Assembly: GCF_058153355.1 (NCBI RefSeq)
Contig: NZ_CM177019.1
Length of the DNA: 64,000 nt
Strand: one strand, 5' to 3'
Below are positions 14,230 to 20,081 of the stretch, in pieces (position 1 is the first letter of the stretch; each line of letters opens with the position of its first letter). The notes below the pieces were generated by a model. That model did not search any database and was not told where the DNA came from. It saw only the letters and a list, made by a program, of their open reading frames with translations. Both the position numbers and the translations under genes were made by a program.

Positions 14230-15674
14230 CGCTGGATACACTTAATGTGATGCTGGCCGTCAGTGAAGAGGGATTGATCGAAGAGATGATCATCGCGCTG
14301 TTGGCCTCACCTCAGCTGGCGGTCTTCTTTGAAAAATTCCCACGACTGAAGGCGGCAATCACTGATGATGTTCCCCGCTGGCGTGAGGCGCTGCGCAGTC
14401 GGCTGAAAGATGCCCGAGTCCCGCCAGAACTCACCGAAGAGGTGATGTGCTATCAGGAAAGCCAGCTCCTCTCCACGCCGCAGTTTATTGTGCAGCTACC
14501 ACAGATCCTGGACTTACTGCATCGTCTGAATTCCCCATGGGCAGAACAAGCCCGACAGTTGGTTGATGCTAACAGCACGATCACTTCAGCGTTACACACA
14601 CTTTTTCTCCAGCGTTGGCGTTTAAGTCTGATCGTGCAAGCAACGACGTTAAATCAACAGCTATTAGAAGAAGAACGCGAACAACTGTTGAGTGAAGTTC
14701 AGGAACGCATGACGCTGAGCGGGCAACTTGAACCGATTCTCGCAGATAACAATACCGCAGCTGGTCGTCTGTGGGATATGAGCGCCGGTCAGCTTAAACG
14801 TGGCGACTATCAGTTGATTGTGAAATACGGTGAATTTCTTAACAAACAGCCGGAACTGAAACGCCTGGCAGAACAGTTGGGGCGTTCCCGGGAAGCCAAA
14901 TCAATACCGCGCAACGATGCGCAGATGGAAACCTTCCGTACCATGGTGCGCGAACCGGCGACCGTCCCTGAGCAGGTTGATGGACTGCAACAAAGCGATG
15001 ATATTTTACGCCTTCTACCACCGGAATTGGCGACGCTGGGGATAACGGAACTGGAATATGAGTTTTATCGTCGGCTGGTGGAAAAACAATTGCTCACCTA
15101 TCGCCTGCACGGTGAGTCGTGGCGTGAAAAAGTTATCGAACGCCCGGTAGTCCATAAAGATTACGACGAACAGCCGCGCGGACCGTTTATTGTCTGCGTG
15201 GATACTTCCGGCTCAATGGGCGGCTTTAATGAACAGTGTGCGAAAGCGTTCTGTCTGGCATTGATGCGCATTGCCCTCGCTGAAAATCGTCGCTGCTTTA
15301 TTATGTTATTTTCCACCGAGATCGTCCGTTATGAGCTTTCAGGCCCACAAGGCATCGAACAAGCAATCCGTTTTTTAAGCCAGCAGTTTCGTGGCGGTAC
15401 CGATCTTGCCAGTTGTTTCCGCGCCATTATAGAACGCTTGCAAAGCCGGGAATGGTTTGATGCCGATGCGGTGGTGATTTCTGATTTTATCGCCCAGCGG
15501 TTGCCTGATGATGTGACGAGTAAAGTAAAAGAGTTGCAGCAGATACATCAGCATCGCTTTCATGCCGTGGCGATGTCAGCGCACGGCAAACCCGGCATCA
15601 TGCGCATTTTCGATCATATCTGGCGCTTTGATACCGGGATGCGAAGCCGCCTGCTCAGACGCTGGCGGCGATAA
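14223..15674 (+). CDS. viaA: VWA-domain protein ViaA
   Basis: 483 aa; overlaps the ravA stop by 7 bp, indicating translational coupling; C-terminal VWA-like DTSGSM motif. Confidence 0.92.
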
Positions 15675-15678
15675 ATTA

Positions 15679-16671
15679 TTACAGCAGAGAAGGGATGCTC
15701 TCGCGAACAGCAGTAGGCCATACACCACACTGAACCTGACCGATATGTGGCAGTTGCAACAGCAGCATGGTCAAACGAGACTGGCCAATACCGCCGCCAA
15801 TGGTCTGCGGCATTTCACCGCGCAGCAGCGCCTGATGCCACTCCAGCTGCAGGCGATCTTCGTCACCGGTCAGCGCCAGCTGATGCTTCAGCGTTTCGGC
15901 ATCCACGCGAATCCCCATGGAAGAAAGCTCAAACGCATCTTCCAGTACCGGGTTCCACACCAGAATATCGCCGTTCAAACCCGCATGGCCCAGCTCTGAC
16001 GGGGTGCTCCAGTCATCATAATCAGGTGCGCGCACGTCGTGGCGATGACCATCACTCAACTTGCCGCCAATCCCGACGAGGAATACCGCGCCAAGATCTT
16101 TCGCAATCGCCCGCTCACGTCCTTTGGCATCGAGATCCGGATAACGAGCCAGTAACTCCTGGCTGTGTACGAAGTGGATCTGATCCGGCAGGAACGGTGC
16201 CAGGCCAAACTCTTCGCTAACCGCAGCTTCGGTTGCTTTAATTCCCGCCCAGATCGCCTCTACCGTGCTTTTCAGAGTCGAGAATTGACGCTCGCCGTCG
16301 CCCATTACGCGTTCCCAGTCCCACTGGTCAACATAGACCGAGTGCAACGGGGAAAGACGGTCTTCATCGGGGCGAAGGGCTTTCATGTGCGTGTACAGCC
16401 CTTCGCCCGCGCTGAAGTCGTGTTGCCCTAAGGTCTGACGTTTCCACTTCGCCAGTGAATGAACCACTTCGAACTGGGCATCAGGCAGAGCTTTCACTTT
16501 TACCTGCACCGCTTTTTCACAGCCCGACAAGTTATCCTGCGTGCCATCCCCCACACGGCTAAGAATCGGCGCCTGGACTTCAATCAGCCCCAGACGTTCT
16601 TCCAGTTGACGAGAAAAGTGAGATTTCACGAAGCTAATTTGACGTTGTTTGGCAATGTAAGCGGTTTTCAT
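15679..16671 (-). CDS. asnA: aspartate-ammonia ligase (asparagine synthetase A)
   Basis: 330 aa, [38 protein letters not shown]…; recognised as AsnA. Confidence 0.96.
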
Positions 16672-17281: not shown

Positions 17282-17370
17282 TCAGCTTTTTTAATCCCAT
17301 ACTTTTCCACAGGTAGATCCCAACGCGTTCACAGCGTACAATACGCCACTCTTAATAAAGGTGGCGGTTT

Positions 17371-17814
17371 ATGGCAGATATCACTCTTATCAGCGGCAGC
17401 ACCCTCGGCGGTGCCGAATATGTGGCAGAACACCTGGCTGAAAAGCTGGAAGAGGCGGGTTTTACCACCGAAACGCTGCACGGTCCGCTGTTGGAAGATT
17501 TATCTGCCTCGGGGATCTGGCTGGTTATCAGCTCAACCCACGGTGCCGGAGATATTCCGGACAACCTTTCTCCTTTCTATGAAGCATTGCAGGAACAGAA
17601 GCCCAATCTTTCTGCGGTCCGCTTTGGCGCTATCGGTATTGGCAGTCGTGAATATGACACCTTTTGTGGGGCTATCGATAAACTCGAGGCAGAACTCAAA
17701 AATTCCGGTGCAAAACAGACAGGCGAAACACTGAAGATCAACATCCTTGATCACGACATTCCGGAAGATCCGGCAGAAGAATGGCTGGGATCGTGGATTA
17801 ATTTACTCAAATAA
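17371..17814 (+). CDS. mioC: flavodoxin-like FMN-binding protein MioC
   Basis: 147 aa, MADITLISGSTLGGAEYVAEHLAEKLEEAGF; lies immediately before oriC. Confidence 0.96.
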   Translation: MADITLISGSTLGGAEYVAEHLAEKLEEAGFTTETLHGPLLEDLSASGIWLVISSTHGAGDIPDNLSPFYEALQEQKPNLSAVRFGAIGIGSREYDTFCGAIDKLEAELKNSGAKQTGETLKINILDHDIPEDPAEEWLGSWINLLK

Positions 17815-17829
17815 GTATACAGATCGTGC

Positions 17830-18095
17830 GATCTGTTGTGGATAACTCTGGTAGGAAACTTGGATCAACCGGTAGTTATCCAAAGAACAACGGTTGTTCA
17901 GTTTTTGAGTTGTGTATAACCCTTCATTCTGATCCCAGCTTATACGGACCAGGATCACCGATCATTCACAGCTAATGATCCTTGCCAGGTTGTTGATCTT
18001 AAACGCCGGATCCTTGTTATCCACAAGGTAGTGCGATCCTAATAAGAGATCACAATAGAACAGATCTCTAAATAAATAGATCTTCTTTTTAATAC
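17830..18095. other. oriC: chromosomal replication origin oriC
   Basis: DnaA boxes TGTGGATAA (17837-17845, R4-like) and TTATCCACA (18016-18024, R1-like); high GATC density; three AT-rich 13-mers of the GATCTnTTnTTTT family at about 18040-18092; placed between mioC and mnmG. Confidence 0.93.
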
Positions 18096-18191
18096 CCAGG
18101 ATCCCAGGTCTTTCTCAAGCCAACAAAGTTGAGTAGAATCCACGGCCCGGGCTTCATCCATTTTCATACCGCGTTATGCGAGGCAATCACC

Positions 18192-20081
18192 ATGTTTTAT
18201 CCGGATCCTTTTGACGTCATCATCATTGGCGGGGGTCATGCAGGCACCGAGGCCGCGATGGCCGCGGCGCGTATGGGTCAACAGACTCTGCTTTTGACAC
18301 ACAATATCGACACTCTGGGGCAGATGAGCTGCAACCCGGCGATCGGCGGTATTGGGAAGGGACATCTGGTAAAAGAAGTGGATGCACTCGGCGGTCTGAT
18401 GGCGAAAGCGATCGATCAAGCAGGCATCCAGTTTAGGATACTAAACGCCAGCAAAGGTCCGGCTGTTCGTGCTACCCGTGCTCAGGCGGATCGCGTACTC
18501 TATCGCCAGGCGGTACGCACGGCGCTGGAGAATCAACCGAATCTGATGATCTTCCAGCAGGCGGTTGAAGATCTTATTGTCGAAAACGATCGCGTGGTCG
18601 GTGCTGTTACCCAAATGGGACTGAAGTTCCGTGCCAAAGCCGTCGTGCTCACCGTTGGGACGTTCCTCGACGGTAAAATTCATATCGGTCTGGATAACTA
18701 CAGCGGTGGCCGTGCTGGTGATCCGCCGTCCATTCCGCTCTCTCGCCGTTTGCGTGAACTGCCGCTGCGCGTTGGTCGTCTGAAAACCGGGACACCGCCG
18801 CGTATTGATGCGCGTACTATCGACTTCAGCGTGCTGGCGCAACAGCATGGCGATAACCCAATGCCGGTATTCTCGTTTATGGGCAATGCGTCCCAGCATC
18901 CACAGCAGGTGCCGTGTTATATCACTCATACCAACGAGAAAACCCATGATGTGATCCGCAGTAATCTCGATCGTAGCCCAATGTACGCAGGGGTGATCGA
19001 AGGTGTCGGCCCACGCTACTGCCCGTCGATCGAAGACAAAGTCATGCGCTTCGCCGACAGAAATCAGCATCAGATCTTCCTTGAACCGGAAGGGCTGACC
19101 TCTAACGAAATTTATCCGAACGGTATCTCCACCAGCCTGCCGTTCGATGTGCAGATGCAAATCGTCCGCTCCATGCAGGGGATGGAAAACGCGAAGATCG
19201 TGCGTCCGGGTTATGCCATTGAGTATGACTTCTTCGATCCACGCGACCTGAAACCGACGCTGGAGAGCAAGTTTATCCAGGGGCTGTTCTTTGCTGGTCA
19301 GATTAACGGCACTACCGGTTACGAAGAAGCCGCTGCGCAAGGTTTGCTGGCCGGTCTTAACGCTGCCCGTCTGTCTGCTGACAAAGAAGGTTGGGCTCCG
19401 GCGCGTTCTCAGGCGTATCTCGGCGTACTGGTTGATGACCTGTGCACTTTAGGAACCAAAGAACCGTACCGTATGTTTACCTCGCGTGCAGAATATCGCC
19501 TGATGCTACGCGAAGATAATGCGGATCTGCGTTTGACTGAAATCGGTCGTGAACTGGGCCTGGTGGATGACGAACGTTGGGCGCGCTTTAACGAGAAGCT
19601 TGAGAACATCGAGCGTGAGCGTCAGCGTCTGAAATCGACATGGGTAACCCCGTCGGCGGAAGCTGCAGCCGACGTGAATGCTCACCTGACTGCGCCGCTT
19701 TCCCGTGAAGCCAGTGGTGAAGATCTGCTGCGTCGTCCGGAAATGACTTATGAAAAATTAACCATGCTGACGCCTTTTGCCCCTGCGTTGACAGACGAAC
19801 AGGCGGCGGAACAGGTTGAGATTCAGGTTAAATACGAAGGTTATATTGCGCGCCAGCAAGATGAGATCGAAAAGCAGCAGCGTAACGAGAATACCTTGCT
19901 GCCAGCGACGCTGGATTACCGCCAGGTATCCGGTCTTTCTAACGAAGTGATCGCCAAACTTAACGATCACAAACCGGCTTCTATCGGTCAGGCTTCGCGT
20001 ATTTCTGGTGTCACGCCTGCTGCCATCTCCATTCTACTGGTGTGGCTAAAAAAACAGGGTATGCTGCGTCGTAGCGCATAA
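18192..20081 (+). CDS. mnmG: tRNA uridine 5-carboxymethylaminomethyl modification enzyme MnmG (GidA)
   Basis: Starts [29 protein letters not shown] (FAD-binding GxGxxG); the ORF track begins 21 codons upstream inside oriC and that extension was not used. Confidence 0.96.

Follow-up and report, generated by a model that had tools for sequence, protein, structure and literature searches.

Is the region between mioC and mnmG in this stretch of DNA an ordinary chromosomal replication origin and, if so, how did it come to differ from the origins of other E. coli genomes? The stretch, called the window below, is 64,000 nt long and comes from NCBI RefSeq assembly GCF_058153355.1, contig NZ_CM177019.1. 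An earlier note, made from the letters of the window, placed oriC at 17830-18095 and described it as the expected E. coli architecture of DnaA boxes, clustered GATC sites, and three AT-rich 13-mers. We put at roughly 95% the probability that the locus is the functional oriC of an E. coli strain and that its rare allele was most likely acquired through a recombination import of ~0.7 kb. The identity and architecture of the origin were read directly from its sequence, and its initiation activity is predicted from them.

The reverse complement of window positions 17770-18135 aligns with zero gaps to the origin_of_replication/oriC region of NC_000913.3, which lies between mnmG and mioC. Position 1 of the Oka numbering (the G of the BamHI site) falls at window position 18104, so that a window coordinate equals 18105 minus the Oka position. 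The interval given by the earlier note holds the whole minimal origin (18082 to 17838), and the alignment to K-12 oriC that it proposed as a check ran without gaps, with the 13-mers and the DnaA boxes present in the window. The segment 17838..18082 (minus strand) is, by its sequence, an ordinary E. coli chromosomal oriC, a well-known element that has kept all of its known functional parts. The landmarks of the locus are as follows.

17303..17311, plus strand: DnaA box TTTTCCACA, in the asnC-mioC gap, the expected place of the mioC promoter (compare PMC4585315)
17371..17814, plus strand: mioC, coding for an FMN-binding protein and reading towards oriC (NCBIfam NF006531 at 243 bits, cut-off 158)
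17838..18082, minus strand: minimal oriC (Oka 23-267), L 13-mer through R4, from gapless alignment to the annotated K-12 oriC
18083..18104, minus strand: AT-rich sequence from the L 13-mer leftward to the BamHI site (Oka 1-22), same as in K-12
18192..20081, plus strand: mnmG (gidA), transcribed away from oriC (NCBIfam TIGR00136, 1017 bits)

The neighbourhood is that of a chromosomal origin. The products of viaA, asnA, asnC, and mioC on the left and of mnmG and rsmG on the right pass their NCBIfam equivalog cut-offs, which bears out the flanking genes named by the earlier note, and dnaA lies just past the end of the window. The origin sits between mioC and mnmG at the GC-skew switch: cumulative G-C, taken over the whole window, is lowest at 18224, ~140 bp away. 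The mnmG leader (untranslated, between oriC and the start codon) carries a 1-bp deletion at window position 18155 relative to K-12 and other E. coli loci.

As annotation, oriC matters only as an anchor that fixes the window at the replication origin. The earlier note used it to place accessory islands, and three accessory regions do lie 14-41 kb to its right, which puts fimbrial and type III effector islets in an early-replicating part of the chromosome with high gene dosage. The operon for long polar fimbriae lpf-O113 (lpfA to lpfC and a fimbrial protein) occupies ~32300-37300 between glmS and pstS, ~14-19 kb from oriC; the closest E. coli genomes have it annotated. At ~42300-47300, between phoU and yieH, lies an islet of very low GC (31-39% G+C) that related genomes annotate as type III effector genes and a pentapeptide-repeat protein; we take this to be the position of the bgl operon in K-12. 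Relatives also annotate a type III secretion effector of the ShET2/EspL2 family in the part of their sequence that corresponds to window 52-64 kb, together with tnaA, tnaB, and mnmE. By position and low GC only, it was assigned to a 492-aa open reading frame at 58140-59618 (plus strand) in a low-GC patch at 56-60 kb and, if this assignment is correct, it would be a third accessory insertion, ~40 kb from oriC. At the left edge of the window, a tRNA-Glu gene (anticodon TTC; 232-307, minus strand) probably belongs, as spacer tRNA, to a ribosomal RNA operon ~18 kb from oriC.

Does the origin itself keep the parts that initiation requires? The unwinding element consists of three tandem AT-rich 13-mers at one end of oriC.

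18070-18082, minus strand: L 13-mer GATCTATTTATTT, K-12-identical
18054-18066, minus strand: M 13-mer GATCTGTTCTATT, K-12-identical
18039-18051, minus strand: R 13-mer GATCTCTTATTAG, K-12-identical

The 13-mers span a segment of 73% A+T, compared with 52% for the window, and the least stable 60-bp duplex of the neighbourhood (18035-18094) coincides with them. The earlier note was right that all three are present, but the R 13-mer has two mismatches to the consensus GATCTnTTnTTTT (PMC4451416), as it also does in K-12. The protein-binding sites adjoin this element and are given here in order from R1 to R4.

18017-18025, plus strand: DnaA box R1 TTATCCACA, high affinity, exact match to TTATNCACA
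17986..17998, minus strand: IHF-binding core GATCAACAACCTG, K-12-identical; consensus WATCAANNNNTTR (PMC4585315)
17962..17970, plus strand: DnaA box R5M TCATTCACA, same as in K-12
17951..17959, plus strand: low-affinity site tau2, K-12-identical, placed by the 2-bp spacing rule (PMC6070618)
17940..17948, plus strand: low-affinity site I1, variant TTATACGGA for TTATACGGT in K-12; 2 mismatches to the R-box consensus, 3 in K-12
17929..17937, plus strand: low-affinity site I2, K-12-identical
17911-17919, minus strand: DnaA box R2 TTATACACA, exact match to TTATNCACA
17885..17899, minus strand: candidate Fis site GAACAACCGTTGTTC, our own match to the consensus GNNYANNNNNTRNNC (PMC4585315) and not a mapped site
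17871..17890, minus strand: low-affinity sites C3 and C2, overlapping R3, K-12-identical
17876-17884, plus strand: R3 TTATCCAAA, K-12-identical
17860..17868, minus strand: low-affinity site I3 TTGATCCAA, K-12-identical
17849..17857, minus strand: low-affinity site C1, variant TTCCTACCA for TTCCTGACA in K-12; 4 mismatches, 3 in K-12
17837-17845, minus strand: DnaA box R4 TTATCCACA, high affinity, exact match to TTATNCACA

In the published architecture, the DnaA sites are packed within 190 bp adjoining the unwinding element, R1, R2, and R4 bind with high affinity, and each gap between them holds four low-affinity sites 2 bp apart (PMC6070618). The window has the three high-affinity boxes at the conserved positions and in opposed orientations, with 189 bp from R1 to R4 as in K-12. 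Nine exact TTATNCACA boxes occur in the whole window where shuffled sequences predict 2.4, and the chance of three within 245 bp is small (Poisson P = 1.3e-7). The low-affinity 9-mers were placed by the published 2-bp spacing rule (PMC6070618) and checked against the mismatch counts in PMC4585315. The placed map gives 3, 4, and 4 mismatches to TTWTNCACA for I1, I2, and C3 of K-12; these equal the counts stated in that paper, which validates the map, in which the exact position of tau1 is uncertain. Both predicted low-affinity arrays have four sites 2 bp apart with the K-12 spacing, and six of these eight sites are K-12-identical. Of all 12 tabulated DnaA sites, ten are the same as in K-12 (R1, R5M, tau2, I2, R2, C3, R3, C2, I3, and R4) and two differ (I1 and C1).

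The predicted IHF site lies between R1 and R5M, the position reported for it (PMC5716108). All 11 GATC sites of the K-12 minimal origin are kept, where the GATC density of the window predicts 1.16 (P = 4e-8), and the densest 245-bp GATC cluster in the window is oriC, with 12 sites against at most 6 elsewhere. Thus the boxes, the GATC cluster, and the 13-mers described by the earlier note were all recovered where it had put them, on the minus strand relative to K-12. The allele is not that of K-12, from which it differs by 11 substitutions in the minimal origin and by two more just beyond R4.

From what is established for K-12 oriC, these parts would be expected to work together in the usual way. 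DnaA would sit on the high-affinity boxes R1, R2, and R4, IHF would bend the DNA between R1 and R5M, and DnaA-ATP would then load onto two opposed low-affinity arrays, R5M-tau2-I1-I2 and C1-I3-C2-C3. R1 and R4 donate DnaA to R5M and C1 (PMC6070618). The left subcomplex would melt the adjoining AT-rich 13-mers and so allow DnaB loading, and the 11 GATC sites would allow SeqA to sequester the newly replicated origin. It is scarcely credible that the locus is a relic which no longer fires while replication starts elsewhere. The elements that are essential, namely R1, R5M, the IHF site, and the 13-mers (PMC5716108, which also finds tau1 dispensable for unwinding), are all intact, and the skew minimum lies beside the origin. 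Nothing in the sequence speaks for a relic save that C1 has lost one consensus match, and the C1 form of the window is the majority form, found in 66/70 enterobacterial origins.

The locus is thus an origin of the usual kind with an unusual allele. That the oriC of the window is a rare, divergent allele was left unremarked by the earlier note, and it is a minor population-genetic curiosity, not a new kind of element. When 351 bp centred on the origin were compared with 5,424 matching complete E. coli genomes, identity was 95.7-97.2%, with 97.2% in one genome and 95.7-96% typical. The K-12 origin used as a query gave at least 98.3% in every full-length row when its ranking of complete E. coli genomes was sampled at regular intervals. 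The 13 substitutions that separate the window from K-12 cluster in Oka 76-270 (window 18029-17835), the DnaA-binding region; there are none in the unwinding element and two in the adjoining 190 bp of mioC. As a result of these changes, I1 has one mismatch fewer and C1 one more than in K-12. The other 10 substitutions fall outside the 12 tabulated DnaA 9-mers and the IHF core. One of them (Oka 213 A>C) is on an N position of the Fis consensus, and another (Oka 101) is in the upstream flank of the IHF core and hits a position of high variability in the family.

An origin only ~96% identical to those of E. coli raised the suspicion that the host is another Escherichia species. This was rejected, as the 22 kb around the origin match the closest complete E. 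coli genomes at 99.1% identity and the genes flanking oriC are 97-99% identical to E. coli but only 90-95% to other Escherichia species (E. albertii and E. whittamii). On this sequence evidence the host is E. coli.

Among 23 E. coli loci fetched, 21 had the C1 of K-12; the remaining two, which overlap and were excerpted from a single contig of the public-run assembly SRR8656992, have the form of the window. The SRR8656992 allele is identical to that of the window over 6.4 kb, and the two may share a source isolate. When the MioC, MnmG, and AsnC proteins were looked up by exact match, this contig alone shared the allele; none of the other lineages with an identical MioC, MnmG, or AsnC protein has it, and all of them carry the common origin. 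A distribution limited to one lineage, perhaps to one isolate, is what might be expected if the divergent bases were an artefact of assembly or contamination, for example reads of a second Escherichia species merged into the consensus. This is very improbable, since an independent assembler (Logan) gives the identical 6.4-kb sequence, the changes are coherent and keep every functional element, the GATC sites, and the spacing, and the differences in mnmG described below are synonymous. Moreover, a contaminant is not expected to be confined to ~0.7 kb with E. coli-identical flanks.

Where, then, did the divergent bases come from? For comparison, 74 orthologous origins were collected from species-representative genomes, and an alignment was built from K-12, the window, and the 69 usable ones; the species scan yielded no entry named E. 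fergusonii, E. marmotae, or E. ruysiae. The substitutions of the window fall at positions that vary in the family, with a mean variability of 0.42 compared with 0.12 elsewhere (Mann-Whitney p = 6e-7). Over the 204 bp of the DnaA-binding region, K-12 is separated from the window by 13 differences, from E. albertii by 15, and from E. whittamii and L014, the second diverged species representative, by 6 each. L014 (NZ_JAATUR010000025.1) is labelled Escherichia coli SCPM-O-B-8794, and in asnC and mioC it shares only 93-95% identity with the window, a level similar to that of E. whittamii; it probably belongs to a different Escherichia species despite its label. The DnaA-binding region of the window is ~94-95.5% identical to that of E. 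coli, E. albertii, and E. whittamii alike.

The changed positions overlap with those of E. albertii, as 9/13 of them also differ from K-12 in that species (hypergeometric P = 2e-7). At seven of the 13, the base in the window is that of E. albertii, of the family majority, or of both; the two C1 positions and the I1 position are among these seven. The window has the family-majority bases at both sites: A253 (66/70 origins) and C254 (45/70) in C1 and T157 (38/70) in I1. G133 and A182 are family-majority states as well.

A second cluster of differences lies in mnmG and, taken with the first, outlines a candidate tract.

17835..18545, no strand assigned: candidate imported recombination tract, comprising the divergent DnaA-binding region and mnmG codons 67-118, from sequence comparison

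In codons 67-118 of mnmG (18391-18545, 155 bp), identity is ~90% with every E. coli examined, 91% with E. whittamii, and 86% with E. albertii, and each E. coli compared differs at 14-17 sites. Relative to L089, the closest E. coli compared, all 18 differences in mnmG are at third positions and synonymous. The boundary on the right is sharp, as the 355 bp immediately after 18545 are 100% identical to E. coli genomes. The ~350 bp between the two clusters (18039-18390) contain the unwinding element, the leader of mnmG, and its first codons; with even E. albertii at 99-100% there, this segment is conserved across species and cannot show differences. The two clusters suggest one tract that joins them across these ~350 conserved base pairs. 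The density of differences from the closest relatives is ~5.5 times as high in 17835-18545 as in the flanks (binomial P ~1e-9), which are 0.7-0.8% different in the same comparisons.

The simplest and most likely reading of this pattern is a single import of ~0.7 kb from a donor at species-level divergence. An Escherichia-like donor would have contributed the DnaA-binding region and the first ~350 bp of mnmG in one homologous-recombination tract. The import would have changed spacer positions together with I1, which gains one consensus match, and C1, which loses one, and would have left the spacing and the other elements the same. Two further patches, at 11750-12250 and 15250-15750, are 4-5% divergent from E200086, the closest genome, which is otherwise 99% identical and counts among the nearest relatives with 2020CK-00188, N96, and R32_14_1F. 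These short patches suggest that the origin-proximal region is a recombination mosaic.

The allele could instead have diverged by point mutation within the lineage, with no import, if constraint on the origin were relaxed or hypermutation acted there locally. All of the changes are single-base and at positions tolerant of variation across the family, which mutation would explain, and six of the 13 match neither E. albertii nor the family majority; one of these, Oka 247 C>T, is found in 0/70 other origins. We nevertheless consider it rather unlikely. Mutation would have had to recreate outgroup or majority states at 7/13 changes and to strike positions that differ in E. albertii at 9/13, and the contiguous 155-bp stretch of mnmG, with its sharp edges and synonymous differences, is a signature of imported DNA, in flanks that are only 0.7-0.8% different.

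The search for a donor bears on both explanations, and its outcome is a point for mutation within the lineage. A 29-mer from the origin was absent from the GTDB species representatives and the JGI metagenomes, and a 33-mer from the mnmG tract was absent from the JGI metagenomes. The 74 fetched origins of enterobacteria included no plausible donor; none of the species sampled has the allele of the window, and the best reaches 193/204 in the DnaA-binding region. A more specific form of the import reading is that the DnaA-binding half was replaced by the allele of a deeply diverged, so-far unsampled Escherichia-like lineage, which would make this a natural chimeric origin in which the altered I1 and C1 could shift the timing of initiation or the discrimination of DnaA between ATP and ADP. 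We hold the chances for and against this form to be about equal.

Under the import reading, the rare allele can be regarded as a small natural experiment, in which the spacers, I1, and C1 appear exchangeable for the states of other species and the other elements are fixed. The form of C1 specific to E. coli could have a part in setting the time of initiation.

Relative to known systems, the origin is orthologous to and collinear with the oriC of K-12 MG1655 (NC_000913.3 3925744-3925975; the minimal 245 bp of Oka et al.), lies like it between mioC and mnmG, and has the same spacings. It agrees with the architecture in the literature (PMC6070618, PMC5716108, and PMC4451416). A survey of 59 strains found R1, R2, R5, tau1, tau2, I3, C1, and C2 to be fully conserved (PMC4585315), and the window falls outside that range, with a C1 that differs at two positions. 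The origins of other Enterobacteriaceae (E. albertii, E. whittamii, Citrobacter, Salmonella, and Klebsiella, and the classical consensus) are built in the same manner as that of the window, with invariant boxes, GATC sites, and spacing and with free variation between them.
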